Source of the DNA: Azolla caroliniana
Taxonomy: Eukaryota; Plantae; Polypodiophyta
Assembly (NCBI GenBank): GCA_043228905.1
Contig: JBHGNT010000010.1
Location: 6,758,001 to 6,822,000, forward strand
Length of the DNA stretch: 64,000 nt
Direction: 5' to 3'
Positions 8,687 to 37,117 of the stretch are shown here, one piece after another. A program made the translations under genes and the position numbers. A model generated the notes under the pieces. The model saw only the letters and a program-made list of their open reading frames with translations. It did not search any database and was not told the DNA's origin. The first letter of the stretch is position 1. The number at the start of each line of letters is the position of its first letter.

Positions 8687-9628
8687 TTATTTATTGGTGC
8701 AGAAATGATGTGCCACGTGTTGAGAACGACCATGGATTTGGAAATGCCATAGCTTGCCCACACCTTCTACAAGGTTGTTCTTGCATAGGAACTCTTCACT
8801 AAATATCTTCTCCACATGACGGTCCACATCATGGAGAAGTATGTCTGTGTAGCTAGGAGCACCATGGGGATGTTCATAATTCATAGCCATAACGGCCGCG
8901 CTAAAGATGGCACTCATCCGTCCAGGCGCCTCGGCAAAGTATCCCCTAGGGGCATCGATCATTATCACATCCCACCTCGTCTCGTAGATCTCCTCCGGGA
9001 GACCTTTCATTGCTAGAGGCTCGCACCGTGATTCCCTCAAATCCGCGCACGCCCCGGGCGAGCAAACCCCGTCCCTCTCTTCCCTTGCATACCCGAGTAG
9101 CTCCTCGGCTTGAGAAAGCCTCGTCGGGTAGCTTGTCGCAACGGACCGCAAGCTAGGGTGCAATCCCTTCATCTCTTCTATCCAGCTCGGGTCCTCCTCT
9201 AGGAACACCGTGTTCCCCCCAAGGTTGAGGGTGTCCCACATCAAGCTATCGTGGCCTAGGCCGAACACGAGGAGATTGCAAGGACCCCTCTTGTTTAAAA
9301 TGTGTGCGGTCACCATGATCTCTTCCTTGGTTTGTTGCGGTGTTATGTTTGTGGTCGCGTAATGGATGAGCGCGAGGGGTACATGCATGTCGGGGAATGC
9401 CGCATGAGCATGTCTGTCGTAAATATTGCTCATCCTCGAGGAGATCCCTTGTACATCATGCACTTGGATGCCGTAGAGGAAGGCCAAAACTAGCACCACA
9501 ATGAGCAATGGCCATAACTTTAAGATGTGTTCAAGACGAGTGTGACACTTACCAATACCAATGCTAAAATGAGAGAATGTGGCCATAGCCGACGCTTTTT
9601 GCTTAGGGTTAGTGTATTGTTTGATCAT
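8687..9628 (-). CDS. DUF579 (GXM/AGM/IRX15 family) cell-wall polysaccharide O-methyltransferase, type II membrane protein
   Basis: Intronless 313-aa ORF with an N-terminal TM helix (LWPLLIVVLVLAFLYGI). Family motifs: HYATTNITPQQ, PCNLLVFGLGHDSLMW, TVFLEED, WDVIMIDAPRGYFAEAPGRMSAIFSAAVMA, HDVDR..EK.FSEEFLC, GKLWHF. Confidence 0.92.
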   Translation of the reverse strand: MIKQYTNPKQKASAMATFSHFSIGIGKCHTRLEHILKLWPLLIVVLVLAFLYGIQVHDVQGISSRMSNIYDRHAHAAFPDMHVPLALIHYATTNITPQQTKEEIMVTAHILNKRGPCNLLVFGLGHDSLMWDTLNLGGNTVFLEEDPSWIEEMKGLHPSLRSVATSYPTRLSQAEELLGYAREERDGVCSPGACADLRESRCEPLAMKGLPEEIYETRWDVIMIDAPRGYFAEAPGRMSAIFSAAVMAMNYEHPHGAPSYTDILLHDVDRHVEKIFSEEFLCKNNLVEGVGKLWHFQIHGRSQHVAHHFCTNK

Positions 9629-12600
9629 GTAATATTGTGGATGTGTCTATGTATTAGGTTGATACTTTGGTTTTCTCTTGGGAAACGCACACGTTAATCT
9701 ACACATAAATATATGGGTGGTTAGGATTGTACTTTTTATGGTGGGAGGAGGTATGATGCCTCCCATATATAAGTTGCCCCACTCTATAGTAGATTGCAAA
9801 ATAGAGCTTCTAGGTATGATTACCCACCCTTTAAAAAATAAGATTGTAAACCAGAAACAACCCACCAACTAATGATTAAAGTGGTCAATCTAACCTTACG
9901 CTTCCGTTTCACAAACCATCACCAATCCTTGACGATTTGAGTAATCGACAGTGATATTACATCCAAAAGCATAAACACAATTATGTAATTGCCTTTGCCC
10001 GTATATATTGTATATGGCAGTTTATACCAAGGTCTACTTTTGCAAGGTCACAATTATTCTGGAAAATTTGTTAAACCTAAGGAATAATTTTGTGGATTTT
10101 GAGAAAAATGAGACTAAGTTCGACATTGCAAAAAGAGATTGTGCTCTAGACAACCCCACTTATTCTATGCAACAACTTATTACTTAAAACTTACACATAT
10201 GCAAGCTTATGTTTCCAAAAAAATAAGTTCAACATGAACAGTAAAGCTTCTTCTTTTTTGACACCTTACTATTAGTTCAAATGTCACGAGATTGTTTGAC
10301 GTTAGGTTCTTTATGATGTGTTTTGTAGATAATGGATGCTAACAAATTGCACCAAGGTAGAAAACAATATTATTGCCAAGAGTAACTTTTTCATATTAAA
10401 AAATGAAATAATCTTAGAAGAAGTTTTAGGCTTCGAAAATGCGTTGATTTTTCTAAAATCTACTACATCATGTAAGGTATGTAGTATATATCACCACACC
10501 CACTAATTTCATGATGTTGTCTTAACTTAAAAGGTAGAAATTATCGGGTGAATCTAGAAAGTTGTTAGTGGGCTCAAGGAATACCGACCAAATTAAGATT
10601 TCTAGCTTTAAGATTCAAAAGTTTGCCTAACATTTGAATAAGGGGTAGACGAATTAAACAATTTCTTAATATGATATGGTTATGAGTCATGACATATTTT
10701 GTGAACATTTATGATGCCATGTTGTGTTTGATTATTCCTAAAGCGTAATAATTTAAATGAGCTGGATATATAGGCCACGTCCATGATTTCAAGCATAAAG
10801 CATGCTCTTGTAAAAATAGATATAACTTGTAATCATCCTCACTATGAAAGCATTATGGTTTTATTAAGAGAAATATCACAAAAGAGTCTTGCCGCTATAA
10901 AAGGACAATCCCCTCTCTTTAGCATGATAGTCTTTTGACTTTTGATGTTTATGACCCATAAATTTTTATTTCAAACATATATTTGTGTTGGGAAGTTGTT
11001 CTTGTTGTAGCGTAAATTGGATCTGAATTCAAGAAAGAGTTTGTTTGACTTGTAAAGGAAACACCTTTTCGTCTTTTATAGAGCATGTGTGCTCTAGAAA
11101 TAATCCATTGGTTTCTAACATGTAATTAGTCTAGTACAAATCCGAATACTACAATAATTGAAGAACTTACTACTAGCCAATAAGAGAATCAAAACATTGG
11201 GATGACATAGACAAATTAAAATTATTGTACTTGTATAAGTTTAATATAAAAAGTGAAAAGGATGTATACTAAAAGAAACAACACCTATGTCATTATGCAA
11301 CACCTCCTATATGTAGTTAAAAGAGGCTATTATGCAACACCTATATGTAGTTAAAAGAAACAATTTACACTAAAAGCAAGTATGAATTCTAAATTGAAGT
11401 ATAAACAATCAATCATTACCTAATAAACTCCTATTACATTGTTCATTGCGTAGGAACTATATAGCGATACTAGTAACATTGTCCCTGACACTTTATCTAC
11501 AATAATGAGAGTGCCACCCGATAACAAGACTCATGTCACCCCTTTAAAATAAATTGCAATAAATTGCAAATGTAATTTTATTTAATTGTCATTTAGCCTT
11601 CTTATTTGAATCTCGTTCAACAATGCAAAGCATTTAGTACGGTATTGCAAATGATTAATATTATTGTACTTATCCAAATTTAAGTGACAACGTAATTGGA
11701 GATTTTGTGGTTTTCTAGAAAGAGTTGGAGGAAATGGTGAAGCATGATCTGACAATGTCAAGGAAATGTTCAAACAAGCTACACGATATTGTTGTTTCCT
11801 CAATATTGGGTGGTTATCAAATCATGCCAATTGAAATTTGAAACTATTGGGATACTTGGTTGTGTAAACTAGATATATGTACATATTTCATTTGTTTTTT
11901 ATTTTAATTGAAGTTTGCTTTTAAGAGAGAGAAAACAAGAATTTGGTGTTGTCCTCTAGTCCCAATGTGACAAAGGACATACTAAACAGGAGAAAAAAGT
12001 CATGCCAGTCATAATACATATTATATCTTAGCTTTAATGACCGCATATGAGGGAAGTGACATATCATACATTGAATTTGGCCTATATAGTTAGTTATATT
12101 AAGGTCGAGACTCGAGTGCATCTCAAAGTGATATTGTAATGAGATTTTCAAGGCAAAGCACCGTAAAAAATTGTATTCCACAAAAGTTCAAAACCCCTAC
12201 ACTTGAAGGAATGTTTTATGATGACCATTCTGTGACAGCAACAAGCACTTGTCTCCAACATCTACATTGATCCCAAACCATGAAGATCTTATCTTTAAAA
12301 TGTCCCTAAAGGTTGAAAAAGTTGTGTACATTATGTTACTGGAAGTTCCATAGTGTATGATTTCAATCTTTAGTATAAACTTTGTAGCAAAATACTTGTT
12401 TGAATTGAAACACATCTTTGCAATAGTTTTTTAACAACCATTTACACAATAATATACAAAATCAAATATTGAACAAAGGTATATTAACGCCATATGCGCG
12501 CAACTTATGTCGTATGTTCATTATTTCAATGATTTAGAATGTTTTCCTTCACCCACTTATTATCTCCCTCGAACATAGACACATTAGCAATTGTTAGAAG

Positions 12601-12923
12601 ACAAAATATTATTGCTATTGTGTGCTAGTGCAGTATGATGCGCGAAACCTCATTTTAGCAAATGTATTGATGAGTTACGAAATGTGCATTAACGACATAA
12701 AGTAGGGGCGATAGAAACTAGCAAAAAACAAGCTAATGATGACATTCTTCATGTTAGTGTCATTTACCTACAACTTCTAAGTCACTAATCCGAGAGATAC
12801 CAATGAAGCGGGGGTGATCTAGACACACGAGGGGGATTTGACAAGGCTGTGGCTCTATCAATGGTGACGAGTGCGGACTGATGTGTCAGATGGTGCATGA
12901 GCCTCTCTGGTGTGGCTTGTCGG

Positions 12924-13165
12924 TATGGGACTCGAGGCCCGTCGTGTTACAATAGGCATATGAGACAACATTGAAGATGACATGGCAGACGAGGGACTCG
13001 AGGTAGGGAGACGTGCAGTATCATAGAAGACAGATTGTGATAGCCCTTGACCTCAATATGGGACTCGAGATCGATCGTGTTACAATAGGCATATATGAGA
13101 CAACACTGAAGATGACCTTGCAGACGAGGGACTCGAGCTAGAGGCATACACTATCATAGAAAGAC
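12924..13165. repeat. Diverged ~133-bp tandem duplication upstream of the PPR gene
   Basis: TATGGGACTCGAG...CGTGTTACAATAGGCATAT...GCAGACGAGGGACTCGAG starts at 12924 and again at 13057. Confidence 0.7.
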
Positions 13166-13355
13166 AAACTCTTTGATAACACCAGTACCTCATGTATGTG
13201 CACAATCTTCTCACTCTTCGGAATTCGTTGAAAGTTGGAGGGTATTTTTTGTAATTTGTAATTTCTTTTTTATTTCCTGTGATGCCCCTAGCTTAAACTC
13301 AGCATGTGATGATGAAGAAGAGGAAGATCAGTGGTAAGCTCAGAGGACTGAATCC

Positions 13356-15279
13356 ATGGCTGCCAGAGATACAGCCCTCCTGTGGAACGAGTTCTTCAGA
13401 GATCCTTCCCTCTTTTGGGACAATCGGCATGACAAGGTAATCACCATGGCTGCTTCACCCTTGATGTTTTTCCATAACTTTTCTTCTCCTTTTCTTTTTT
13501 TTCTGTTTCTCTCTCAGAAGCCCTAAACGACGACGGCTCAATTGTGTTTGAAACCCATCACAGAGGAGCTCAAAGTCACCAGATTTCAGGCATAAAAAGA
13601 CAAGGAAAGTGTTATGGGTAGATAATTGGTTCAACCCGCCTTTTGTTAAGGTTAAGCTAAAAGAGCTGAACTTGCCCACAATTCCGTTTTATGATAGAAT
13701 TGATCTTTTGAACCTTATAAAGGTATATGAGAAGGAGAAAAACTTGTTTAAGATCAGATGCATACATGATGATGTGATAGAGAGAGACTTGATAAGTAAA
13801 GATGTGTATGTTGCCACTGCCCTTCTAGGTGCTTATGCCAAATGTGGTAATATTGAGACAGCAAAAAATATATTCAACCAAATTCCGGTACGGAATGTTG
13901 TGGCTTGGACAGCCCTTATTTCTGGATATGTCGAACATGGACTCGGCCATGATGCCTTAAAATGCTTCAGAAAAATGCAAAATGAAGGGATCCACCCAAA
14001 TATTGTGACTTATGTTTGTGCTTTGAAAGCATGTGGCATCGTCAGATGTCTCGAGGTTGGAGAAGTTATCGAAGCTGAGGTTAGAAAGCAAGAAATATTG
14101 CAAAAGGATGTCATGCTTGGGACGGCATTGGTTGACATGTTTTCAAAATGTGGTTCAATGAAAAAAGCACAAGAAGTATTCGATGAGTTACCGATTCGGA
14201 ATATAGTGTCTTGGACAGCCCTCATTGCTGGATATGCCGAGCAAGGTCTTATCAATGAAACCTTGAAATGCTTCAATCAAATGCAAAATGAAGGAATTTC
14301 TCCAAATGTTGTGACTTACACTTGTCTTTTGAAAGCTTATGGCACAGCCGGATCGAGAGAGATTGTTCAAGACATTGAAGCCAAGGTCAGAAAGCAAGGA
14401 TTATTACAAAAAGACCTAGTGCTTGGAAATGCTTTGATAATCATGTATGCTAAATGTGGTGCATTGGATGAAGCGCAAAATGTATTTGAGCAACTGCCAA
14501 TGCAAGATGTTGTGTCATGGACATCCTTGATTTATGGATATGCTGAACATGGTTTCAGTGAGGAAGCACTAGAGTACTTCAGATGGATGCAGGACAAGGG
14601 AATTCGTCCTAGTATAGTAACTTATATTTGCATTTTGAAAGCTTGTGGAAACTTAGGGTCTCTCGAGATTGGAGAAGGCATCAATATTGAAGTTAGAAAG
14701 CAAGGACTATTGGAGAAAGACATAATGCTTAGCACGACGTTGATCGGAATGTATGCCAAGTGTGGTGCATTGAAGAAAGCACAAGAAGTATTTGAAGAGC
14801 TTCCGGTGCATAATGTCGTGTCGTGGACTTCCTTGATGGCTGGATATGCCCAGCTGGGTCAAACTAACGATGTTTTTGAGCTCTATAGACAAATGAGGAA
14901 CGAAAACATAGTCCCAAATTCAGTTACCTTTACTGTCTTGCTTTCTGCGTTTAGTCATGGAGGTCTGCTGGAAGAGGGTAAAATGTTGCTTGATGAAATG
15001 TGCTTCATTTACTATCTCACTCCAGAGTTAGAACACTATGCATGTATGATGGATTTATTCGGGCGAGCCGGATGTTTTAATGAGGCTGAAATGTTGCTCG
15101 AAAAGGTGTCATCTGAAGATCGTCTCCCGCTCTTCCTCGCTATATTGGGTGCTTGTCGTAAGTGGAACAATGTGAAGCTTGGTAGGTGGGCATTTGAGCA
15201 ATCAGTACTGTTGGATGAGAACTGTGGTGATGCGTATGTTTGCATGGAAAATATATATGCAAGTCAGAGTCAAGATTGA
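13356..15279 (+). CDS. PLS-class PPR protein with N-terminal OSB-type PDF motif; join(13356..13436,13564..15279), 598 aa
   Basis: Exon 1 encodes MAARDTALLWNEFFRDPSLFWDNRHDK, followed by a GT donor at 13437 and CAG acceptor at 13561-13563. Exon 2 continues RSSKSPDFRHKKTRKVLWVDNWFNPPFVKVKL in frame with the 13609 ORF. Then about 4 P-L-S triplets (ALVDMFSKCG..A..VFDELP.RNIVSWTALIAGY), E1 (LAILGACRKW) and a truncated E2. Confidence 0.85.
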
Positions 15280-15324
15280 CATAAAATTTTGAAATAATAC
15301 TGGTTTGATAGGCAAAAGAACATT

Positions 15325-15490
15325 GTTGGTTGGTCCAATATCAATGGGCATATATCCATGGGTTTGTTATGGCCAATAAGAGTGATCCAAGATTAATTAT
15401 GTGCTTTTCAACAAAAACAACTGAAGATTATGCTATTGGGCCTTGAATTACGATGGCTATGTGCACCAGACGTGGCTCTCCATGGGTCTT
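15325..15490 (+). pseudogene. Possible eroded E+/PG-box relic downstream of the PPR stop
   Basis: Frameshifted reading W-S-N-I-N-G-H..H-G-F-V-M-A-N-K-S-D-P followed by GYV/PDVAL, resembling the SWIE..VH.F...D.SHP...GY.PD consensus. Confidence 0.35.
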
Positions 15491-16332
15491 CCTTAATGGA
15501 ATTGGATTCTTCAATGCATGGAGATATACACTATGAAAGCTAGAAAGTTGCTGTAAATTATTATGAAGAGAGCTATCACTTATCAGCTAACTGTTGGGGT
15601 ATACCTTCTCATGCGATAAGTTTCAAGAGGACCAACTGCACTTAGTTATATCTCTACAGCTGTAAACTCAACTTCAAATATGTTGAGACCTTGAGTGGTG
15701 GATCCTCCCCACTTGTGAATAACTTCCAATGTCTGCACACAAGCATGTAACACAATCATCACTGCCTTTAGTGAACCTGACATGAAGATCACCGGGTGGA
15801 CCTGGAGTTGTGAAGAGTGAACAAGTTAGAGATCATGTAAATGGCATCGGACTTGGAGGAGATGATAGAGGTGTAAGACGGACTAAAGCGATTAATACAT
15901 CTGTTTGTTACGCAAACAGATTCAGATTCTGCATCGTGGCTACTATGAGTATATGCTACAAGAAACTTCAAGATATTATAGCTATTTGCTGATTGGATGA
16001 GTTATCTAGGCAAGAAATGTTTGTGAAAGATAACAGTTTAATGTGTATGGCAACAATGAGAAGTTGGGTCTATTAATCAATGCACCCTTAGTCACGAATG
16101 TCGTGCAAAACTAACAATAGCATGCCATCCATATTTGAAGATTCAATGGCTGAAAAAATCACACATCATAGACTCTAATAACCTTAATTCATCTTTCATC
16201 CTTATGAAGATGATTTGACTCCATTTCTACCCTTAATAATGAGATAAGGAACCTTTACATAGCACTCCATGGACTCAAAATGAATTCCAGACTTAAGAAT
16301 ATATGATACTCATTGCTGCTGTGTAGCAATCA

Positions 16333-17515
16333 TCATCAGGTTCTAACTTGTCATTGGCTTTGCTGTTGGAACATCAACAAAGTGAGGGTGATTGAATTGC
16401 TAGGAATATTACTGAAGTTCATAGCAAAGCCCGACTTACATGTGTCACTCTCATCAGGTTCTAACTTGTCATTGGCTTTGCTGTTGGAACATCAACAAAG
16501 TGAGGGTGATTGAATTGCTAGGAATATTACTGAAGTTCATAGCAAAGCCCGACTTACATGTGTCACTCTCATCAGGTTCTAACTTGTCATTGGCTTTGCT
16601 GTTGGAACATCAACAAAGTGAAGGTTATCGAATTGCTAGGAATATTACTGAAGTTCATAGCAAAGCCCGACTTACATGTGTCACTCTCATCAGGTTCTAA
16701 CTTGTCATTGGCTTTGCTGTTGGAACATCAACAAAGTGAGGGTGATTGAATTGCTAGGAATATTACTGAAGTTCATAGCAAAGCCCGACTTACATGTGTC
16801 ACTCTCATCAGGTTCTAACTTGTCATTGGCTTTGCTGTTGGAACATCAACAAAGTGAAGGTTATCGAATTGCTAGGAATATTACTGAAGTTCATAGCAAA
16901 GCCCGACTTACATGTGTCACTCTCATCAGGTTCTAACTTGTCATTGGCTTTGCTGTTGGAACATCAACAAAGTGAAGGTTATCGAATTGCTAGGAATATT
17001 ACTGAAGTTCATAGCAAAGCCCGACTTACATGTGTCACTCTCATCAGGTTCTAACTTGTCATTGGCTTTGCTGTTGGAACATCAACAAAGTGAAGGTTAT
17101 CGAATTGCTAGGAATATTACTGAAGTTCATAGCAAAGCCCGACTTACATGTGTCACTCTCATCAGGTTCTAACTTGTCATTGGCTTTGCTGTTGGAACAT
17201 CAACAAAGTGAGGGTGATTGAATTGCTAGGAATATTACTGAAGTTCATAGCAAAGCCCGACTTACATGTGTCACTCTCATCAGGTTCTAACTTGTCATTG
17301 GCTTTGCTGTTGGAACATCAACAAAGTGAGGGTGATTGAATTGCTAGGAATATTACTGAAGTTCATAGCAAAGCCCGACTTACATGTGTCACTCTCATCA
17401 GGTTCTAACTTGTCATTGGCTTTGCTGTTGGAACATCAACAAAGTGAAGGTTATCGAATTGCTAGGAATATTACTGAAGTTCATAGCAAAGCCCGACTTA
17501 CATGTGTCACTCTCA
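16333..17515. repeat. 118-bp tandem satellite, 10 copies, two variant types
   Basis: Unit starts TCATCAGGTTCTAAC at 16333+118n. Variant A is GTGAGGGTGATTGAA and variant B is GTGAAGGTTATCGAA. Order AABABBBAAB. Confidence 0.95.
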
Positions 17516-18578: not shown

Positions 18579-21500
18579 CTATATATGAAGCCACTTGAGG
18601 TTAGCAATATTGAGTTCCTGGAACTCGAGATTTGTTTGAGTTCCTTCCAAGCTAAAAATCTCCCGTTCCTTCTGTGTGAGCCCTTCACAAAAAGCCCTCG
18701 CCGCTTCATCAGCATCTCGGTATACTTGCTGTATATTAAAAACGAAATATTATGTATAAATGTAGTTGGATAAAAACAGAAAATACGAAAACCAAAAAAT
18801 AGCCCATTAATTTTTGGAGCATTTTTACGATAGTAATACTGCCCTCGCTAAGTTTACAAAATTGGCCAGAATGCCAGTATACAGTAGTAGGTTTTGCACT
18901 ACATAGACGTGCAAAGGGCAAAAAGAAAACCAGAAAACAGCCCCCTACCCTCCCCTCCTAAGTCTACAAAATTGGCAAGAAACTATCATAATAGGTTTTG
19001 TACTCTAATTAATTTTAAAAAGTTTGGGATATTCTGTAATTTATGAACATGTAATAGCAATCTCATCATAAAGTTGGAGTACCACAATACCTCAATGCTT
19101 TCAAAAGTTTACCAGAATACTGTTATTTTGTATTAAGTTTTGAACAACATATGGTACGCTGATAGTTTTTAGAAATTCAGGGTATTCCACTGAATTTCTA
19201 AACATTAGCGGTAATCGAGTGTTTTGCCCAAAAAGAAAGGTTTAACACAGTCATGTATAGTACCTCTTTATCACGAAGCATAAGACCCCTTTCTTGTTCT
19301 ATATCCGCGGTGCTACAAGTTCAAACGTAGAAAATGTTAAGAATAATGGAGTTTACAATGTTTCTAAAATGTTGAAAATGATTCGTTTAACTCATTAATC
19401 ATTTTTTGAGATGCAAACACATTGTACTTCTAGGTAATTTACCTGAATGAAACTTGGCCAGGATTTCGGCCTTTGATCAACATGGCTCGAACTTGTTCAC
19501 CTTCTGCAAAAAAGGTCGATACCGAGCTCACATATTCTTTTGATATATTGGAGATGTGTAGAAATCCCCTGGTTGCATTAAAACAAGGTTTTTTCAGGTG
19601 TTATAATTCTTTATCCCAACTTCATAATAGTTTGTTGCCATCAATGTAAAAAGTAAAACCATATAATTGAAAATAGTTCTCGAACCTTATGCGTGTGTTT
19701 TCAATTTCCACTTGTAAGCCATATGGATATATTCTTGTGACAGTGAGATTATGCACTGATCCAAGCAAGAGGTTTTTGCTCATCTGATTTTGATAATTTG
19801 AAAAATGTTAGCATGTGGACACCAATAACAAAGAAGTAATGAAGATAATGCTTTTTCTTGGATCTTGAATGAATAACACTCAGTAACTCAACATATGCAT
19901 GTGTGTCCACACAAGCGCAGTCAGTTATTAATGATACATGAAAGTGTTCTCTACAACGTCTAATGCATTATAACAAACACTCCAGACAAATTGAGAATAT
20001 GAAGATTTCGAAATAAACTGAGCTAAATAGAATTTCGATCTTGATACTTTAGAACCAAATAGATTGAATAAAACAGCACTATACCCAGGGTTTAACTTCA
20101 CTTGTGATACAATTTGAAGCTTGTATATCTGCTTGAGTTACTGCAACGGGAAGCATCTTTCCAACCTACAATGAAATATAAATAGTTTACAGGCAAAACC
20201 AAATTGTATTTTCTGCTTATTACGAATTCAATCAATTGGCATTTAAAATTTTGGGTTCAACATACGTAATCCTTCAATGAAATCGAACTATCTGGTTTCT
20301 GAAGGAGCTCTGATTTCGGAAGAAAAGCTCTCACACCCTGAAAAAAAAAGACCCTAGTTAAGAAAAGACACACATGGATTGCTCTGATACATTAATTGAC
20401 AATACTTGAAAGTGAAACTTTATTACCTCCAGATATCCCAAGAGCCCCCCTTCATTTGATTGTACAATCTCAAGTTGGATTGTTTCACCCGATTGCATCA
20501 GCTGATGAATATAAATAAAAAATCCAGACTAATGAGATGCAGAAAATATCATAGCACCAACCAATATTGAATTAACGCGTAATGATTCCCAACCTTATAA
20601 AGAGCATTTATCACAACCAAAAATTTAAGATCCCTATTTTCATACATGTATCAACAAATACTGAAGGATGTAAAACAATTACAACATGAATTTAGCCTTT
20701 GAATAAAATGTTTAGAATCTTAAAAAATAGACACAATAATCTCCTCAGAATAAAACAAGATCACAAACCTGGGCGATACGATTCCAGGAGAGTCTCCGTG
20801 CCGGCAATCTACATGAAAGAATGGCTCGGCCATCGGTCAAAGCTCGGCCTTGTACTTCAGCAAGGACAACTGTACCTATTTCCACACCTTCAGTATAAGA
20901 ACCATCGTTTACAGATTTATCTTCCATTAATAGAACTCTTCCTTCAGGGGCAACAAACCCTTCATTTGGGTTCCTGTCGCTCGTGGGTAGTTTAAAGAAA
21001 GTATTTTCTATAATCTGTGGAAATGGTTGGAACTCTCTGAAAGGCATCACAGCCGGGAACTGTGCTCCGATTTCTAACTCCAATTCATCATCATTAGAAG
21101 AAATCACAGCCCCAAGAACAATATCCCTCTCTTCTGGTTCATAGAACTCAGACTTTACATCAGAATTTTCTGACGCATTAACATTAGAAATAGTTGGCTT
21201 TGAAGAGTCAACCGATGATGGGTATGGTCCCCCAGCATAAGGTCTCATTTGAGAAGGCGAAGGTTGGCCACCTGTGGGAAATGGATCCCTATAACCAGGA
21301 GTTGTTTCGAAAGGTTTTGATTGAGTAAACAATGGTGTTCTGTTCTCATTACTTGTTTCGGGAGTTTTTGATTGAGGAAACAATGGTTCTCTGTTCTCGC
21401 TATTCACTTCAAGCGGTTTTGATTGAGGAAACAAGGGCGTACTGTTACTATCTCTCGATGGCTGACCCTGGGATAATCCTTCTGTTGTTAGATCACTAGG

Positions 21501-23393
21501 CCGAGTTTGAGGAACAAGTGGTGTCGTATTCTGGACATCCGTTCGCACCTGGCCACCACCCATGGGCTGTGTTTGTCCTGAACCACTTTGAGAAAACAAT
21601 GGTGTATAGGGTTTTCTCTCTTCTCCAGGTGGTGGCTGAGGAGCTGATGGCGGGCCATTTTGAGGAAAAAGGGGCGTGTAAGGCTTCTTTTCTTCGAAAG
21701 GTGGTGGTGGAGGAGGAGTGCCATTTCTAGGAAAAGGGGGAGGAGGAGAAGAATAGGACCTCTGTTCCCCAATCGGAGGCGGAGGATTGGTCATAGAGCC
21801 TTGAGAAAACGATCCTCGTTGAGGAGGGGGGGCATTATTCTGACCCTGAGAGAACTGGGGATTGTATTGCTGCCCTGGAGGAGGTGGCATCGGTGTTGGT
21901 TGTTGTCGGGGCGGTGGAGAAGTGTTCTGAGGAAACAGGGGTGTGTATTGCTGTCCTTGAGAAGGCGGTGACAACGGTGGTGGTGGTGGTGCTTGTCGGG
22001 GAGGTGGGGGAGAATTACCTTGAGAAAACTGGGGTGTGTACTGCTGCCCTTGAGGAGAGGAAGGTGGTGGTGGTTGTCGGGGAGGTGGCGGAGAACTGTT
22101 TTGAGAGAACGGGGGAGTGTACTGCTGCCCTTGAGGTGGTGGTGGACGAGGCGGCGATTGTTGTTGGGGTGGTGGTGGCGGCGGAGTATTGCTCTGTGAA
22201 AAAGGGGGATTATATGGCTGCTGCCCTTGAGGAGGGGGTGGGGGAGGAGGAGGAGGTGCCCTGTTCTGGTATTGAGTTTGTGAAGGCAGAGGAGGTGCCC
22301 TGTTCTGGTATTGTGTCGGTGGTGGTGGTGGTGGTGCCCTGTTTTGATACTGAGGAGGAGGTGGTGGCGTGTCTTTCGAAAATTCAATTGTATAAGGCTT
22401 CCTGTCTTGCACGGGAGGAGGAGGAGGCGATGATGATGATGATGGCGGCGATGCCCTGTTCTGAGAGAACAGGGGAGTATATGGATAAGGTTTCTTCTCA
22501 TTCAGAGAAGGAATGGGCGGAGTACCCTCGGGTGGGCTCGTGGGGAAGCCACCTTCTGGCATGGGAACTTCCTCTTGTTTCAAATCAGCCCTCTTCTGGT
22601 TCAAAGAATCGAGGAACATAAGGAAACTGCTGGTGGGCTTCTCTTGCTTCGGGATATAATCCTCACCGATGATTTCCCCATAGTAATCTTCGAAGGGACC
22701 ACCGAAGGGGATACTGGGGGGGGAGGGGGGTTCAAAATCATCCATGGTTTCAGTGGCATAGATGACATAGTGGAAATCCTCGATCGGGATTTGAGGGATA
22801 GGTTTTCTCGGTTCAAAGAAGGAGAAAGGGGGTGGTTTGGGGGGTGTGTTGGAGGTCTCTTTCGAGGAGGGAGGTATTGTGGCGGCGCCTGACAGAGAAC
22901 TAGGAGGCGGGCGGGGTGTAGTAGCAGCCATATTAGGGGGAGGGGGAGAAGGAGGATAGGAACCAGGACTTACCTCTGTTGATGCTACCATAGCCGTATT
23001 CAGGCGGTTCAGCCGCCCCGCCTGTGGGTGTATCTGATGATCATGGCTCCTCTTCATAGAAGGAGGGCAGCCGTAAAAGGAAGAGCCGAGCGAGAATGCG
23101 CCGCAATTCGACCCGAGAAAGAATGGAGAGCTCGATGCACCACCACCACCACTACCACCGCAGAAACTGGGTTTCTTCAGAACATCCTCCGCTTCGCTCG
23201 AAACCAATGGTTTGGAAGAAGAAGAAGAAGAAGAAGAGAGATGTCTTGCACTCCTTCTCTTGTGGGCATAGCAGCATATCTTGTCTGATGCAGAAGAAGA
23301 AGAAGAAGAAGAAGAAGAAGGGGAAGGAGAAAGTCCATGTTGGTGTGGAGAGGAAGGATAGATGGAGAGGGGTCTGAGCATGAAGGACGCCAT
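18579..23393 (-). CDS. PDE338: Chloroplast S1-domain RNA-binding protein, RLSB/BSF/PDE338 family, with very long Pro/Gln-rich insert; about 1091 aa
   Basis: Exons 23393-20769, 20501-20427, 20337-20266, 20165-20085, 19783-19686, 19568-19443, 19312-19264 and 18728-18579, all GT-AG and frame-consistent (3276 nt). Ser-rich transit-peptide-like start. S1 segments FYEPEERDIVLGAVIS, GTVVLAEVQGR..GRAILS.R..RRLSWNRIAQ, NEGGLLGYLEGVRAFLPKSEL and IYPYGLQV...RGFLHISNIS. C-terminal ANLKW corresponds to the ANW.W motif of the family. Confidence 0.85.
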
Positions 23394-23421
23394 ATCCACA
23401 CCTCCACAAAACCCCGGAGGG

Positions 23422-23454
<33 letters not shown>

Positions 23455-24008
23455 AGAGGAAGAGGAAGAGGAGTGGATGAGGCCTCCTCTTACTTATGTT
23501 TGAGACTCTGAAGCAAAAAAAACACTTAAAAAGACTTCACTCTTTTCTTGTTAAACATATATATACATACAATACATACATACATATCTCTTTTTAACAT
23601 TTTTGTACATAAAAAACCTAAGATCACTCTTCCAACAACAACAAAAAGAACTCACAAGCCAAGCAAAAGAAAATATCTTCTCATTTCTCTCTTTTTTGTG
23701 TCCGTCCGTCCGTCCGTCCGTCCGTGCACTGCAGCCGCCCACCCGAAGCTGGCCGCATACTCCCCCCTTCCCCTGCATGTATTGCCCCCTCACTCATTGA
23801 TTGTAGAACAAAGTTATAGTTCTATTGCGAGCTGCCTACACGAGTATCAAGCAGAAAACTCGAGTCAGAATCATTACTCTTAAAGAAAAGCACCACAACG
23901 AGCCTCCATCACACCAAAGATCCAATTCGTTTTAACTTACAACGACCCAAACTGGCTTTAAAAGGCATGGAAGCTACTACTTCTCGAAGTCACCAAAACC
24001 GCGATAGA

Positions 24009-24794
24009 ATTCTCAAAACGAAATGTTTTGACATACCAAGTGTGGTGATCCCAAAGGATACCTAACCTCTCGTCAAAAGGATCTCTTCAAATGTGATCGA
24101 GAAGGAAGTGTTCGAGTGAAAATCATGTTTGAATAAAGAGACGTAAATAATCTACATATTGTTTCGAGCTTGATAATCAAACCATCATTTCTATGGTAGG
24201 AGCCCCATTCTCAAAAGGAAATGGTTGACGTACCAAGTGCGGCGATCCCAAAGGATACCTAACCTCTCGTCAAAAGGATCTCTTCAAATGTGATCGAGAA
24301 GGAAGTGTTCGAGTGAAAATCATGTTTGAATAAAGAGACGTAAATAATCTACATATTGTTTCGAGCTTGATAATCAAACCATCATTTCTATGGTAGGAGC
24401 CCCATTCTCAAAAGGAAATGGTTGACGTACCAAGTGCGGCGATCCCAAAGGATACCTAACCTCTCGTCAAAAGGATCTCTTCAAATGTGATCGAGAAGGA
24501 AGTGTTCGAGTGAAAATCATGTTTGAATAAAGAGACGTAAATAATCTACATATTGTTTCGAGCTTGATAATCAAACCATCATTTCTATGGTAGGAGCCCC
24601 ATTCTCAAAAGGAAATGGTTGACGTACCAAGTGCGGCGATCCCAAAGGATACCTAACCTCTCGTCAAAAGGATCTCTTCAAATGTGATCGAGAAGGAAGT
24701 GTTCGAGTGAAAATCATGTTAGCATAAAGAGAAGTAAATAATCTACATATAGTTTCGAGCTTGATAATTAAACCGTCATTTCTATGGTAGGAGC
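24009..24794. repeat. 197-198-bp tandem repeat, 4 copies
   Basis: Units start ATTCTCAAAA at 24009, 24207, 24404 and 24601. The segment is single-copy in repeat copy B. Confidence 0.92.
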
Positions 24795-25918: not shown

Positions 25919-28900
25919 TGTTGAAAAACAGTGCTCGGCCACAACCGAGGAATAGGATCAACTCACAGAAAACGGGAAATACAAAGTGCACGGGGACAAT
26001 AGAGAGAAAGGTACACTGGATATTTTACGTGGAAAACCCTAAATGGGAAAAACCACGGGAGTCCTCAAACTCCAACTATCACTATGAACAGGGATGTACA
26101 CTGGTGAAGCTACAAGGCAACAACCTTGAGCTCACTGTCTTCGCCACAGGCGGCGGTAATACACAGAGGCAACGACCTCTTCGTCTCTCTCTCTCTCTCT
26201 CTCGGCTGCTCTCACTTCGCATAAAAATGAGCAACAACAACAAAACTGTTTGCCCTAAGTCATATTTATACACATATGACTTTCGGGCTATTTACAAATA
26301 TGGCCTCAAGGGCCCTTGGCAAACATATTCACAAATATGTCCCCGCATCCGGATCTCTCTCCGGGTACATTCATCATCCGGCTCCGTAGCCGGGGTCTTC
26401 GTCATCCGGCTCCGTAGCCGGGTCTTCGTCATCCGTCTCCGTAACCGGGCACTCTTCATCCTCCGGTTCCGTAACCGCAACCGGGCTTGCCGTCATTCAT
26501 CTCCGGACATCCCATCCGGAGGGACCGAAATCCCAACAAACTCCCCCTTCACTTCGGCATGGGATGTCTCTCCAATCCGATCCTCTTCCGGCATGCTTCC
26601 AGCTTGTCGGGTGTGAGCACCTTGGTCAGCATATCCGACCCGTTCTCGTCCGTGTGGACCTTCGTCAGCACGAACTCCTTGTCTTCTATCCTTTCCCGGA
26701 TCCAGTGGTATCTACGCTGGATGTGCTTCGTCCGGGAGTGATAGGCCGCGTTCTTCGCAAGGTGGATGGCACTCTGACTGTCGCAGTAGAGTCGGTACTC
26801 CTCTTGCCGGATACCGAGCTCTCTAATGAAGTCCTTCATCCATATTATTTCCTTGCCGGCTTCAACAGCCGCCATGTACTCCGCCTCCGTGGTTGACAAC
26901 GCAACCTTCTTCTGCAGCCTCGACTGCCACGAAACAGCTCCCCCTGCATACGTCATCACATACCCTGATGTGGACCGGCTGGTATCTGCATCAGCCGACA
27001 TATCCGAATCGGTAAAGCCGTCGAGTTCGGGCTTACCGGAGCCGAATCGGAGGCACACGTTTGCCGTGCCCTTCAGGTATCGGAGTATCCACTTGACCGC
27101 GTTCCAGTGCTCCTTGCCGGGATTGCTCATGTACCGGCTCACCACTCCGACTGCGTATCCTATGTCCGGTCTTGTACACACCATAGCGTACATCAAGCTT
27201 CCGATGGTAGAGGCATATGGTACTTTCATCATGTCCTCTTTCTCAGCCTTTGTCTTGGGGCTTTGCTTGCTGGACAACTTGCAGTTTGCCGGGAGAGTTG
27301 ATCCGACCGGTCTTGCTTCCGACATGTTGAACCGGTGAAGCACCTTTGTTACGTACTTCTCCTGTGACAGCCACAACTGCTTCTTCTTCCGGTCTCGGAT
27401 GATGTGCATCCCTAGTATTTGCCTCGCCGGACCCAGGTCCTTCATTGAGAAGGTTCGGTGAAGTGCTTTCTTCAGCATCCGTATCTTGCCCTGGTCCCGT
27501 CCGACGATCAACATGTCGTCCACGTACAGGAGGAGTATTAGAGAGTCTCCTCCTTCGAACTTCTTCACAAACACGCAGTGATCGGACTGCGTTTTGTGGT
27601 ACCCTTCGTCGGTCATGAAGGAGTCGAACTTCCGGTACCATTGCCGGGGAGCCTGCTTCAGTCCGTAAAGGCTCTTCTTCAACCGGCATACCAGGTGCTC
27701 CTTCCCTTTCTTCTCGAATCCTTCCGGTTGCTGTATGTAGATCTCTTCTTCGAGGTCACCGTGAAGGAATGCCGTCTTCACGTCCATCTGTCCTACCTCG
27801 AGGTCCATGCTTGCCGCTATGCTCAGCACCGTCCGGATGGAGGTCATCTTCACTACCGGGGCAAATATCTCGTCGAAGTCGACGCCCTTCTTCTGCTGAA
27901 ACCCCTTCACCACGATCCTGGCTTTGTATCTCGGGGGATTTCCGGCATCTCCCGGTTTCAGCTTGAACACCCACTTGTTTCGAAGTGCCCGCTTTCCTTT
28001 CGGCAACTCCACAAGTTCATATGTGTGGTTCTCATGCAGGGAATCCATCTCGTCCTGCATGGCACTCAACCACCTGCGGCTCTGGGTGTCATGCTTTGCT
28101 TCTTCAAAGCTCTCCGGCTCCCCCTCGTCGGTTAGCAGCACGTGCTCTGGTTCCGGAAATCTCCGGGGGGCCCTTCTCTCTCTTAGAGGATATCTCCGTT
28201 CCGGAGCTTCGGTAACCGGTTCTCCCGATTCTTCTTCATCCGAATCCATTTCGGGATTGGGGCCGGTTCCGGTATCATTTTCATCTTCTTCGGCCGGTTC
28301 TGTTTCTTCACCATCTTCGGCCGGATCCTCGAGTGCTAACCGGTCCCTTGCCGGTCGGGACTGCTCCTCGTAGAGTTGATCCTCACCGGTCGACTTGGAG
28401 CTCTTCATCTTCTTCTCCGACTCCCAGTCGGCGAGTGTCTTGTTCTCCATGAAGATGATATCACGACTCCGGAATATCTTCTTGTCGACCGGGTCCCATA
28501 CTCGGTAGCCGAACTCGTCGTCGCCGTATCCGAGGAATATGCATGGCCGGGTCTTAGGATCTAACTTTCCTCTCCGGTCCTTTGCCACATGCACGTATGC
28601 GAGACACCCGAACACCTTCAGATGCCGGTAGGACACTTCCTTACCGGTCCACACTTTCTGCGGCGTGTCTCCGTCCAAAGGTACTGAGGGTGATCTATTT
28701 ATCACATACGTCGCCGTCGACATTGCCTCAGCCCAAAATCCCTTGGGTAATTTCGCATGTGCTAGCATACTCCGGACCCTCTCCATTATGGTCCGGTTCA
28801 TCCTCTCGGCCAGCCCGTTCAGTTCCGGCGTCTTCGGCACAGTAAACTCGAGCCGGATTCCCTTCGAGCGACAGTACTCCGCGAACTGCCCCCGGTATTC

Positions 28901-31273
28901 CCCTCCGTTATCCGCTCGTATCGCTTTCAGCTTCTTGCTGGATTCTCTTTCCACTCTCGCGTGGAGTTCTTTGAAGACGGACAATACTTGGTCCTTTGTC
29001 TTCAACGGTGCCGTCCACAGCTTCCGGCTGTGATCATCAATGAATGTTACGAAGTACTGGGCTCCGCCATGTGACTTCGTTTCTACCTGACACACATCAG
29101 TGCGTACCAACTCCAATGGTACACTACGTCTCGTCGGTGGCCTTGAGTGGAAGGAGGCTCGGTTTTGCTTACCGGCCAGGCAGTCGGTGCACTTCTCCAG
29201 GTGCACATGCTTCACTGGAATAAGGTTGTCTTCTGCAAGCCTCTTCATCCCCTTCTCACTCATGTGGCACAGTCTCTTGTGCCACAGCTCTCCGGCAGTG
29301 TCGGCTGCCACGTTCAGCTCCTCCGGACATAGCCGGGAATTCATCAGGTACAGTGTATTGACCTTCCGGGCCCGAGCCACTATCAGGTTCCCTTTGCTGA
29401 ACTTCATGACACCGTTCCGGATGCTACCCGTGTAGCCTTCATCATCTAGCCTCCCGGCCGAGATCAGGTTCAATCGGACCTCCGGAACGTGTCGAACATC
29501 CTTCAGCAGCATCTTGCATCCGGTTGATGTCATCAGCCACACGTCTCCTATGCCGGCAATCCGGCATGTGCCTTCATTTCCCATCCGGACACAGCCGTGC
29601 TCACCGGCTGTGTAGGATGAGAAGTATTTCTTCTCCGGGGTCAGGTGGAACGACGCTCCGGAATCGACCACCCAGGTCATCTCTTCACCGGCAAGGTTCA
29701 GCTCCGTCTCTTCGGTAATGAGCATTATCTCTTCTTCACTTGCCGCGAGTGCCGTCGTTCCTTTCCGGTCCTGCCCTCGCCAATCCGGACCTCTCCGGTC
29801 CGTGGCTCCCCGGTATGCACCGTTTCTCTCCGGTGACTTCTTCGAATCGGTGTCGTCGGATCCGTTGTCCTTTCGGTAATGCCGACAATTCTTCCGGAAG
29901 TGCCCCGGCTTCCCACAGTGGAAGCAGGTGGGTCTTCCTCTTGACTGCGACCGGGTCCCCGACTTCTCCCGTCTCTGCGGACTCCGGTTCCAGTGTCTTC
30001 CCCATTCCGATTCGGTAAGCAGCATCTTTGGATCGGAAACCGGTTCTTTATCTCTCCGACGCGCTTCTTCGTTCAAAATGCTTGTCTTTACCGTTTGTAG
30101 AGACAAGTTATCTTCGGTGCAGGAGGTGCTGAGAGTCACCACCAAGTTCTCCCAGCTTTCCGGCAATGTACACATCAGAATGATGGCTTGCATTGCATCC
30201 TCCAACGGGAACTTGATCGCCGCAAGCTGGTTCACGAATCCCATGAACGTGCTCACGTGTTCCACCATATTCTCGCCGTCCCGGTACTTGAGGTTCACTA
30301 TCTTCCTCATCAGGGAGGTCCGGTTCAACGCATTCTTCCTCTCGTAGAGGCCCGACAGCTTCTTCCACATCTCATATGCGTTGGTGTCGTTCGCCACATG
30401 TTGTAGGACGCTTACATCGACATATTGCCGAATCGTCGCTACGGCTTTCCGGTTCAGGAGCTTCCACTCCGACTCTATTACTCCCTTGGGTATCTCGGCA
30501 TTGTCGATCGGTTCGTACAGGTCTTGGACGATGAGAAGGTCTTCCATCTTTATCTTCCAGTCGGCGTAGTTCTGTGAGTTCAACACCATCATGCCCGGAG
30601 GCCCACTACCGCCGCCTTCCATTTTCTGTGTTACCGTCGCTCTGATACCAGTTTGTTGAAAAACAGTGCTCGGCCACAACCGAGGAATAGGATCAACTCA
30701 CAGAAAACGGGAAATACAAAGTGCACGGGGACAATAGAGAGAAAGGTACACTGGATATTTTACGTGGAAAACCCTAAATGGGAAAAACCACGGGAGTCCT
30801 CAAACTCCAACTATCACTATGAACAGGGATGTACACTGGTGAAGCTACAAGGCAACAACCTTGAGCTCACTGTCTTCGCCACAGGCGGCGGTAATACACA
30901 GAGGCAACGACCTCTTCGTCTCTCTCTCTCTCTCTCTCGGCTGCTCTCACTTCGCATAAAAATGAGCAACAACAACAAAACTGTTTGCCCTAAGTCATAT
31001 TTATACACATATGACTTTCGGGCTATTTACAAATATGGCCTCAAGGGCCCTTGGCAAACATATTCACAAATATGTCCCCGCATCCGGATCTCTCTCCGGG
31101 TACATTCATCATCCGGCTCCGTAGCCGGGGTCTTCGTCATCCGGCTCCGTAGCCGGGTCTTCGTCATCCGTCTCCGTAACCGGGCACTCTTCATCCTCCG
31201 GTTCCGTAACCGCAACCGGGCTTGCCGTCATTCATCTCCGGACATCCCATCCGGAGGGACCGAAATCCCAACA
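25919..31273 (-). mobile_element. Intact young Ty1/Copia LTR retrotransposon (Tnt1/Tork-like), GC-rich
   Basis: 620-bp LTRs at 25919-26538 and 30654-31273, no differences seen. Perfect TSD GGTTG. PBS TGGTATCAGAGC (30650-30639) and PPT at 26541-26549. Confidence 0.97.
26549..30622 (-). CDS. Copia Gag-Pol polyprotein, 1357 aa
   Basis: Uninterrupted ORF from MEGGG. Zn knuckle CFHCGKPGHFRKNC, protease VDSGAS, integrase HHCC and ADNGGEY/NGLAER, RT LLYVDDML, RNase H TDSD..STTEAEY..CDSQSAI. Confidence 0.95.
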   Translation of the reverse strand: MEGGGSGPPGMMVLNSQNYADWKIKMEDLLIVQDLYEPIDNAEIPKGVIESEWKLLNRKAVATIRQYVDVSVLQHVANDTNAYEMWKKLSGLYERKNALNRTSLMRKIVNLKYRDGENMVEHVSTFMGFVNQLAAIKFPLEDAMQAIILMCTLPESWENLVVTLSTSCTEDNLSLQTVKTSILNEEARRRDKEPVSDPKMLLTESEWGRHWNRSPQRREKSGTRSQSRGRPTCFHCGKPGHFRKNCRHYRKDNGSDDTDSKKSPERNGAYRGATDRRGPDWRGQDRKGTTALAASEEEIMLITEETELNLAGEEMTWVVDSGASFHLTPEKKYFSSYTAGEHGCVRMGNEGTCRIAGIGDVWLMTSTGCKMLLKDVRHVPEVRLNLISAGRLDDEGYTGSIRNGVMKFSKGNLIVARARKVNTLYLMNSRLCPEELNVAADTAGELWHKRLCHMSEKGMKRLAEDNLIPVKHVHLEKCTDCLAGKQNRASFHSRPPTRRSVPLELVRTDVCQVETKSHGGAQYFVTFIDDHSRKLWTAPLKTKDQVLSVFKELHARVERESSKKLKAIRADNGGEYRGQFAEYCRSKGIRLEFTVPKTPELNGLAERMNRTIMERVRSMLAHAKLPKGFWAEAMSTATYVINRSPSVPLDGDTPQKVWTGKEVSYRHLKVFGCLAYVHVAKDRRGKLDPKTRPCIFLGYGDDEFGYRVWDPVDKKIFRSRDIIFMENKTLADWESEKKMKSSKSTGEDQLYEEQSRPARDRLALEDPAEDGEETEPAEEDENDTGTGPNPEMDSDEEESGEPVTEAPERRYPLRERRAPRRFPEPEHVLLTDEGEPESFEEAKHDTQSRRWLSAMQDEMDSLHENHTYELVELPKGKRALRNKWVFKLKPGDAGNPPRYKARIVVKGFQQKKGVDFDEIFAPVVKMTSIRTVLSIAASMDLEVGQMDVKTAFLHGDLEEEIYIQQPEGFEKKGKEHLVCRLKKSLYGLKQAPRQWYRKFDSFMTDEGYHKTQSDHCVFVKKFEGGDSLILLLYVDDMLIVGRDQGKIRMLKKALHRTFSMKDLGPARQILGMHIIRDRKKKQLWLSQEKYVTKVLHRFNMSEARPVGSTLPANCKLSSKQSPKTKAEKEDMMKVPYASTIGSLMYAMVCTRPDIGYAVGVVSRYMSNPGKEHWNAVKWILRYLKGTANVCLRFGSGKPELDGFTDSDMSADADTSRSTSGYVMTYAGGAVSWQSRLQKKVALSTTEAEYMAAVEAGKEIIWMKDFIRELGIRQEEYRLYCDSQSAIHLAKNAAYHSRTKHIQRRYHWIRERIEDKEFVLTKVHTDENGSDMLTKVLTPDKLEACRKRIGLERHPMPK

Positions 31274-35700: not shown

Positions 35701-37117
35701 CCGGAGCATACCAAAGCCGTGAAGAAGCTCAAGAAATCACTACGGAGGGCAAAAGCACTAAAGAAGCCGAACTATGACCGACCGATCATAGTAACGGTTG
35801 ACACAAGTCCAACCGGAATCGGATGGGTCATCAATCAAACCGATCCGGATGGTTCACGATATCCGATCCGATTCGGAGCAAAGGTTCTCAACGAAAGGCA
35901 ACGCGGATATTCACAAGTCAAAAGAGAATTATGGGGAATCGTGTTGGCAATCAAATTGGATCGAGATTATTTGATCGGAGCCGAAGTAGTGATCGAAATG
36001 GATTGTCTTCCGATACTCGGGATGATGCGGTGTTGCACGATACCGGATGTGGCTATACTAAGATGGATTGCATATGTTAAGTCGCTTAATTCGGAGGTAC
36101 GACACATCTCCGGAAAAGACAACGCGGTATCGGATATGCTATCAAGGGCGCGGTTCGGAGATGACATAACCGATTCCGATAATGAAGAAGTTTCTGAAGA
36201 CTACTTTACTTCGGAGCACATATGCCGGGTAAATGTAATCTGAGAATTCCGGGAAGAAGAATACGAGGTAGAAAGCTTGCTGATTGGGAAAGTGCTACAA
36301 GAAATTGAGGAATCATCGGACAATAAAGAGAAGAGAGCCGAGATCCGAAGTAAGAAGCGGCAAGTCCGAAAGTTCTTCTTGAAAAATGGATTAATATGGA
36401 GGGAGCTGAAAAGACCGGATGACATACCACTTCGGGTAGTCGGGACGAAAGAGCAACGAAACCGGATAATGTCCGAATTTCACGAATCCGATTGGGCTGG
36501 ACATCGAGGAACATGGTCAACTTTTGTGAAAATCAAACAAAAATATTGGTGGAAAAACATGTACAAAGATATAGCGGAATTCACGGAAAGCTGCGAGAAG
36601 TGTCAAATCTACTCCGGAGTTCGACACCGAGATGAGTTACATCCGACATTCTCACCAACAATCAACTTCAAATGGATGGTCCATATTGTAGCCATGCCAA
36701 CTGGGATTGGACAAAAGAAGTACTTGGTGTTAGCTCGGGAAGATCTCACAAACCAAGTAGAAGGTCGGGCGCTACGAAGGAAAACATGTTCTGCAGTATG
36801 CCAATTTCTTTTGGAGGAGGTGTTTTGTAGGTACGAGTGCGTAGGACAAGTGATTGCGGATCGGGGAGAACTCGACTCTGATAAAGCTAAGGAATTCTTC
36901 ACCAAACATGGAGTTCGGTTAACACTGACAACGGCATACAATCCAGAAGCCAATGGGAAGATCAAACGAGGACATAGTCCGATTGTCAAAGCACTTGCAA
37001 AGGCATGCGATGGAAGGGTGAAGGATTGGCCGTAGATGCTTCCGTATGCACTATGGGCGGATCGGACGACGCATAGCTCCGTAACCGGTTACATGCCGCT
37101 AGAACTCATGACCGGAC

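Follow-up and report, generated by a model that had tools for sequence, protein, structure and literature searches.

A PDF motif of the OSB type fused to a deaminase-less PLS-class PPR array in the fern Azolla caroliniana

The locus described here lies in a window of 64,000 nucleotides of Azolla caroliniana, by which we mean the whole stretch of DNA that was analysed (GCA_043228905.1, contig JBHGNT010000010.1, positions 6,758,001 to 6,822,000). It raises the question of whether a motif known from plant ssDNA-binding proteins is spliced onto an array of PPR repeats in one protein and, if so, what such a protein would do. Judging from an IRX15/GXM gene and from copia and gypsy elements, the window is plant nuclear DNA. 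The gene is a deaminase-less fern member of the PLS-PPR kind of editing factors, and the fusion is real. The PDF domain likely gives RNA-editing guide proteins a built-in helper.

The features of the gene are collected in Table 1. The open reading frame track alone covers 13552-15279 and lacks exon 1. The original prediction was that a missed first exon splices in frame into the long frame, and its coordinates hold: the joined frame yields the peptide quoted there, a contig of a related organism bridges the junction, and the position of the intron is shared with moss-like loci. Within the motif, the intron is flanked by WDNR, whose Arg lies 9 nt upstream of it, and by PDF, whose Pro follows 15 nt downstream. 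An in-frame TAA (13335-13337) is located 21 nt before the ATG at 13356, which is the first in-frame start, as seen in a transcribed contig. A candidate mini-exon spotted by eye at 13292-13333 is unsupported; the stretch 12700-13305 is without contig cover in four runs.

Table 1. Features of the PDF-PPR gene in the window.
Feature	Coordinates	Strand	Remarks
Joined gene	13356-13436 + 13564-15279	+	1797 nt; single ORF of 598 aa
5' leader	13329..13355	+	From contigs; first letter of the X2 record 13329, of the X13 record 13349, neither with loose ends
Exon 1	13356..13436	+	81 nt, 27 codons; encodes the start Met and the PDF motif's first half
Intron	13437..13563	+	127 nt, phase 0; GT 13437-13438, AG 13562-13563; inside the PDF motif
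Proximal alternative acceptor AG	13516..13517	+	Contigs X8 and X2 (short sides)
Exon 2	13564..15279	+	Stop codon 15277-15279
PDF motif, second half	13564..13668	+	Residues 28-62; OSB HMM, conservation profile
Linker and probable degenerate first L motif	13669..13803	+	Residues 63-107; reading as an L motif inferred
PLS array S-P-L-S-P-L-S-P-L-S-P2-L2-S2	13804..15123	+	102-residue period; Pfam PPR families
E1 and first 17 residues of E2, then stop	15124..15279	+	Pfam E_motif profile 1-37 of 63

Splicing was read from GT..AG joints in contigs of related organisms, about 96-98% alike, which came from 5 of 19 run datasets; four of the runs cover the junction analysis. The runs carry no RNA record, and the contig depths do not rank isoforms. 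At least 31 letters on the short side of a joint were taken as a valid bridge. The productive skip of 127 nt is present in two of the four runs: a 298-nt contig of X13 with 86 letters on the short side is a valid bridge of the productive junction, and the joint in X8 has 25 letters, which is below the threshold. The proximal acceptor, whose use had been named as an argument against the fusion, is also joined in two of the four runs (X8 with 25 letters, X2 with 27, both below the threshold), alongside the productive junction and not in its place. Its use leads to a stop within two codons (TAA 13524-13526), and retention of the intron, seen in contigs of runs X1, X2, X8, and X6, leads to a stop at 13524. 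The productive form exists alongside non-productive ones that are at least equally visible in the contigs of the four runs. Such a leaky intron inside the PDF motif would set the amount of full-length protein. Loose ends of contigs in the fern runs also reveal several paralogous motif-coding transcripts.

The identity of the motif was assessed with an HMM built only from OSB-type sequences (8 PDF motifs, contributed by 4 proteins with an SSB domain). On this HMM the joined motif reaches 63.7 bits (profile positions 5-57) and its halves separately 24.0 and 33.2 bits, in a test that is not fully independent, since the source proteins of the HMM were found with a profile holding the window's two motif halves. 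A thousand shuffles reach at most 9.1 bits and the other frames of the window at most 6.2 bits, so the segment can be taken as a PDF motif of the OSB type, as had been proposed. A word search using the second half-motif alone gave no match. The motif comprises roughly 50-55 residues with invariant Trp, Asp, Arg, Lys, Pro-Asp-Phe, and Leu-Trp, and 4-8 residues stand ahead of it in this protein. All positions that are at least 90% conserved among 143 OSB-type motifs are retained. Two positions that are usually Trp are Phe here, a residue found there in no more than 1% of 284 sampled PPR and OSB motifs. The second half of the motif is 68% identical over 19 residues in the ortholog, vs. 74% for the array.

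One may ask whether a motif with these changes still serves the protein. It could be a passenger that was useful in an ancestor of the family and is now decaying, the array working without any need of it. The two Trp-to-Phe changes and the leaky splicing are in line with decay, and so is the motif's presence in only a subset (8 of 120) of the PPR relatives of this protein, most fern PPR matches being without it. Half-motif remnants with which the Adiantum models P0007, P0012, and P0051 open fit it too, although these may be missed first exons, as occurred here. However, the near-invariant residues are all kept, the only start codon before the array sits in exon 1, and the second half, down to its Pro-Phe-Val end, is retained in the ortholog P0380. 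Decay of the motif in this gene appears quite improbable.

The Pfam search revealed neither PF00436 nor any other OB family at E up to 1, and its library, which lacks PF30937, gave no model for the PDF motif. An AlphaFold2 model of a homologous motif shows a compact helix/three short strands/helix arrangement with pLDDT 89-96 over residues 1-60. The best hit of a PDB sequence search with the motif has an E of 1.4, which is no match. Fold searches with the modelled domain gave a best E of 4.1 in Foldseek and a best Z of 4.0 in VIA (rmsd 3.3 over 54); this lack of a match speaks for neither a new nor a different fold. In the ESM Atlas, residues 8-71 of the Adiantum homolog P0218 are assigned to the Pfam 38.1 family PF30937; the family is ascribed to the window motif through this homolog. 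P0218 has PF30937 matches in three PPR/DYW clusters (127, 57, and 63 members), in one SSB cluster of 53, and in a phage cluster (TM 0.70). Feature searches of the Atlas gave no usable match.

The second part of the protein is a PLS array of 13 motifs by anchors; its period and its P2-L2-S2 end agree with the PLS class, in which P, L, and S motifs have 35, 35-36, and 31 residues. Among named proteins, PPR proteins of Ceratopteris and Adiantum are most closely related to the long frame. The original prediction placed the repeats directly after the motif. The in-frame PLS-E array stands; however, about 45 residues, a linker or degenerate L motif, precede the first clear S repeat. The predicted ending in E1 and a truncated E2 is borne out, E1 being whole and E2 having only 17 residues, and the ortholog fragment P0378 (80% identical) ends at the identical E2 residue. 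The E1 motif is nearest to fern DYW proteins, with 53% identity to P0017, vs. 35-38% to moss and Ginkgo. The predicted lack of a deaminase is likewise confirmed as far as 17000: an HMM of 41 DYW tails (15100-16400) and a tblastn search with 7 tails (15100-17000) match E1/E2 only. DYW remnants suspected by eye after the stop were not confirmed by these searches.

The code residues of the P and S motifs are S:TN P:TN S:TN P:TN S:ND P:TS S:TN P2:TN; seven of the eight pairs are canonical (six TN, one ND), and one is TS. TN occupies six of the eight pairs here; in relatives it makes up 20% of the P motifs (498) and 9% of the S motifs (387). The repeats of this protein are, however, not independent of each other. 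According to the PPR code, T or S with N reads A, N with D reads U, and S2 is placed at -4 (PMC10482289). The target, which the original prediction left to be derived from the code, is predicted to be A-rich: A-A-n-A-A-n-U-(purine)-n-A-A at -16 to -6 before the edited base. All 16 P/S code residues recur in P0380 and P0079, two likely orthologs with 74-75% identity; a paralog with 59% identity has 9 of the 16. Among the rows listed for the relatives, 15 of 33 coding differences are synonymous vs. 10.1 expected (P about 0.04), and unpaired indels fall in the intron or after the stop, none in coding parts. Judged by these comparisons, the gene is maintained with a kept target and is not a recent wreck.

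How widely the fusion occurs was examined with a motif profile of six PPR-borne homolog stretches and the window's two halves, which matched 286 proteins and 1184 representatives. Among the best 120 of the 286 matches, 100 are PPR proteins, and in 99 of these the motif is N-terminal to the array. Within the same 120, a strict pattern with HSEK/HSER and CxxC identifies a terminal DYW domain in 32, and 29 carry two or three PDF motifs. These figures indicate that the motif travels with editing-type PPRs, the co-occurrence for which the original prediction had proposed to scan. The named PPR-bearing matches among the best 120 belong to Diphasiastrum (most), Sphagnum, Ceratodon, Calypogeia, and Adiantum, and none to seed plants; the named motif proteins of the seed plants Asparagus, Digitaria, Kingdonia, Welwitschia, and Coptis are without PPR. 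The best 150 representatives comprise 62 of the OSB type, 13 with PPR, 17 with tandem motifs alone, and 58 short or other ones. SSB-domain proteins with at least two motif copies, the OSB build, are found among the profile matches, and none of the fetched motif proteins that were scored combines an OB fold with PPR.

A survey of 80 metagenome loci retrieved with a Sphagnum homolog (one of them, L001, is 100% identical to the query) gives further information on the intron. The motif is split with both anchors in 51 of the loci, 50 of which have GT and AG at the window's intron position, in 25 different donor contexts; the remaining ones are unsplit (7), without the motif (6), or partial or unanchored (16). 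In a motif tree of 105 rows and 58 columns the window's motif shares a group (SH 81) with 2 OSB motifs and a further 43 from the PPR side. This tree, made by a quick method and without strong support, decides neither for nor against a single origin. One PPR-side motif in this group comes from a fern fragment without repeats, and two motifs of P0148 fall outside it. Taken together, these sequences show the PDF-PPR fusion to be a large family of long standing in seed-free plants, whose members have an intron in common. The suggestion of a lineage-specific family was hence too narrow: mosses, a liverwort, a clubmoss, and ferns are included, many members have DYW, and up to three PDF copies occur. 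Since the motif is missed wherever a gene model leaves out the short first exon, the family is probably undercounted in ferns.

Some individual models call for comment. The Diphasiastrum protein P0127 has its second PDF motif in mid-protein (678-735) and may represent two merged genes. In Coptis P0274, PDF motifs are joined to a kinesin, probably in a merged model. Tandem-PDF proteins without SSB or PPR (P0248, P0315, P0273, and P0261) come from datasets of the dinoflagellates Cladocopium, Yihiella, and Biecheleria and from a volvocine alga, a wider spread than is allowed for in a review, where the range is "green plants only".

Where in the cell would the protein act? No presequence is visible in the spliced frame, which has a stop upstream of its ATG in frame. 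No obvious presequence is seen in 50 of the 52 fern PPR models listed either. In four named fern fusions the motif is preceded by 2-31 residues; the corresponding leaders in mosses, liverwort, and clubmoss mostly measure 40-150. Those PLS-E proteins whose location is known are organellar. A different possibility is that the fern subfamily remains outside the organelles, in nucleus or cytosol, where its ligand would be A-rich RNA or ssDNA. The stop in the transcribed contig and the short leaders of the four fern fusions speak for it, as does a paralogous transcript that, in loose ends of three of the four runs, has a stop directly before its matching Met-Ala start; the basic stretch in the motif could, speculatively, act as a nuclear signal. 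But fern PPR models without the motif are also mostly without a visible presequence, which may reflect unusual import or incomplete 5' ends, and the known PLS-E proteins argue for organelles. A location outside the organelles is very improbable in our judgement.

We propose that the gene encodes a 598-residue deaminase-less PLS-E guide for organellar editing, in which the PDF domain is a sequence-unspecific grip on single-stranded RNA, its binding being putative; the chances of this proposal appear evenly balanced. The organellar-guide reading relies on the family of editing-type PPRs, the kept code, the shared intron, the near-invariant motif residues, and the synonymous excess. The array would read the predicted A-rich site by the PPR code, and E1 with the stub of E2 would bring in, in trans, a DYW or DYW:KP protein as the donor. 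The PDF domain would sit at the 5' side of the bound RNA, adding affinity and holding or melting the flank. In seed plants, separate cofactors (MORF, ORRM) do this job. On the other side are the missing presequence, the non-productive splice forms, the two Trp-to-Phe changes, and a second half of the motif that is no better conserved than the array. OSB1 and OSB2 are reported to favour ssDNA over RNA, the PDF motif of OSB1 being sufficient for ssDNA binding (PMC4166229, PMC6963530). For ferns, DYW-less PLS proteins acting in trans have been proposed as the main mode of editing (PMC13263110, PMC12548569), and the former leaves room for an editing cofactor peculiar to seed-free plants. MORF is reported in seed plants only (PMC13386178), and MORF homologs are claimed in two ferns (PMC12561531).

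A partial precedent for an RNA grip comes from an alga. The Chlamydomonas protein RBP40 is, we assume, built of PDF repeats. A 383-aa protein with four motifs from Astrephomene, an alga related to Chlamydomonas, lends this indirect support. The published primer for RBP40 starts Met-Leu-Thr, like P0261, which is weak support (PMC3570535). According to PMC3570535 and PMC3555230, RBP40 by itself binds any RNA; the repeat protein Nac2 makes it specific, and RBP40 destabilises a stem-loop. RBP40/RB38 with Nac2 thus resembles the fusion in that an unspecific single-strand binder is guided by a helical-repeat RNA reader, but it consists of two proteins that activate translation (PMC3555230, PMC3570535), whereas here one chain has an editing-type C-terminus.

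The main competitor of the RNA grip is a tether to DNA: the PDF domain would bind single-stranded organellar DNA (nucleoids, D-loops, R-loops) and hold the guide at transcription, or the array would guide the domain to specific DNA:RNA hybrids. It agrees with ssDNA being the only measured ligand of a PDF motif (PMC4166229, PMC6963530) and with editing-type arrays with tandem motifs resembling the multi-motif build of OSB proteins. It is also consistent with phage sequences. Among viral contigs, a scan by pattern picked out 18 loci (L081-L098, around 1500-1560) with a stretch related to WDNR..NPK.PDFK, in 17 of them at the C-terminus of ERF ssDNA-annealing proteins, and PF30937 includes the phage cluster named above. 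However, the pattern itself was the criterion by which these phage loci were chosen, and on the plant HMM they reach only 11-20 bits. Moreover, the N-terminal repeats read the 5' side of the RNA (PMC10482289), which would place the motif away from the polymerase, and a single motif without a tetrameric OB scaffold would presumably bind weakly. OSB2 is described as a tetramer in the OSB literature. In general, a DNA tether seems rather unlikely, though it is a serious alternative. The phage ERF stretch is a possible prokaryotic relative of the plant PDF motif and, as a likeness in sequence, a lead on its ancestry. Within the phage stretches, a CxxC..C..C frame resembling a zinc ribbon precedes an acidic tail that ends in Pro-Phe/Tyr.

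The protein may first be compared with two known groups. With OSB1-4 and PTAC9, the latter presumably an alias within the OSB group, it shares the PDF motif of about 55 residues with its invariant residues, which is present in one to three copies in relatives. OSB1-4 are reportedly organellar ssDNA-binding proteins (PMC6963530, PMC4166229, PMC6451138), as Zaegel et al. are said to have found in 2006. In contrast to OSB proteins, where the motif is C-terminal, the protein is without an OB/SSB domain and carries the motif N-terminally before the PPR array. The second group is that of PLS-E editing factors with a donor DYW, such as Arabidopsis CRR4 with DYW1 and the DYW-less fern PLS proteins (PMC13263110): the PLS triplets, P2-L2-S2, E1, the lack of DYW, and the canonical code residues are the same. 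Unlike the CRR4 type, the fern protein has an extra folded N-terminal domain, an E2 of 17 residues, no visible presequence, and one intron. RRM-PPR and MORF-PPR proteins (PMC13386178) likewise have an accessory nucleic-acid-binding domain fused to a PPR array, but the domain is different.

As to novelty, a review of moss PPR proteins lists RRM, LAGLIDADG, SMR, NYN, CBS, and SAP as added domains, and not PDF (PMC9459714). The words PDF and OSB do not occur in the main text of a survey of editing factors in 364 genomes (PMC13386178). The fusion is unmentioned in the main texts of these two papers and of three fern/U-to-C papers, and a literature search whose coverage is incomplete, with supplements and some key papers beyond reach, gave no description of a PDF-PPR fusion. 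The original remark that no description of the architecture was known stands to that extent, while PF30937 of Pfam 38.1 already covers the motif in PPR clusters. That entry includes the homologous stretch of P0218 and is a database record, not a functional description of the fusion. The "CURE domain" of moss PPR proteins was considered as a prior description, which a check of the literature did not bear out.

The wider meaning of the fusion concerns how, in the absence of MORF, PLS-PPR proteins in mosses and ferns manage to edit sites in the hundreds to thousands, and the fused PDF domain is a concrete candidate for the cofactor. Recombinant editing factors are routinely trimmed to 14 residues before the first repeat (PMC13656186), a practice that would remove an N-terminal domain of the PDF type. 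If the PDF domain binds DNA instead, it would physically connect editing with the nucleoid. In designer PPR editors, the domain could serve as a small affinity module. A broader scenario is offered tentatively, and as a whole it is somewhat unlikely. Seed-free plants would possess a large undescribed class of editing factors with an OSB-derived PDF domain as a built-in single-strand cofactor, which was fused once near the origin of land-plant editing, as the shared intron may indicate, reached two to three copies in clubmosses, and was lost in seed plants as MORF took over. The domain, which has no solved fold and has phage relatives on ssDNA-annealing proteins, would unfold the target RNA or tie editing to organellar DNA, and the leaky intron in ferns would be a switch.

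The surroundings of the gene deserve a short description. A gene of the IRX15/IRX15L/GXM family (8687-9646, minus strand) and the PPR gene are divergently oriented. At 16333-17515, about 1 kb downstream of the PPR gene, a 118-bp unit occurs in ten copies that are 98% alike, and a 197-bp unit is present in four copies at 24009-24794. The frame of 914 codons at 20748-23489 (minus strand) begins with a Ser-rich leader like a plastid transit peptide, has a long repetitive region rich in Pro and Gln, and is without a Pfam match; its end resembles what we take to be the start of an S1 RNA-binding domain. Two retrotransposons of the copia type and one of the gypsy type have long open frames (26549-30697, minus strand; 38015-42031 and 55611-60893, plus strand), and a further one of the gypsy type at 34549-37035 (plus strand) is broken by stops.
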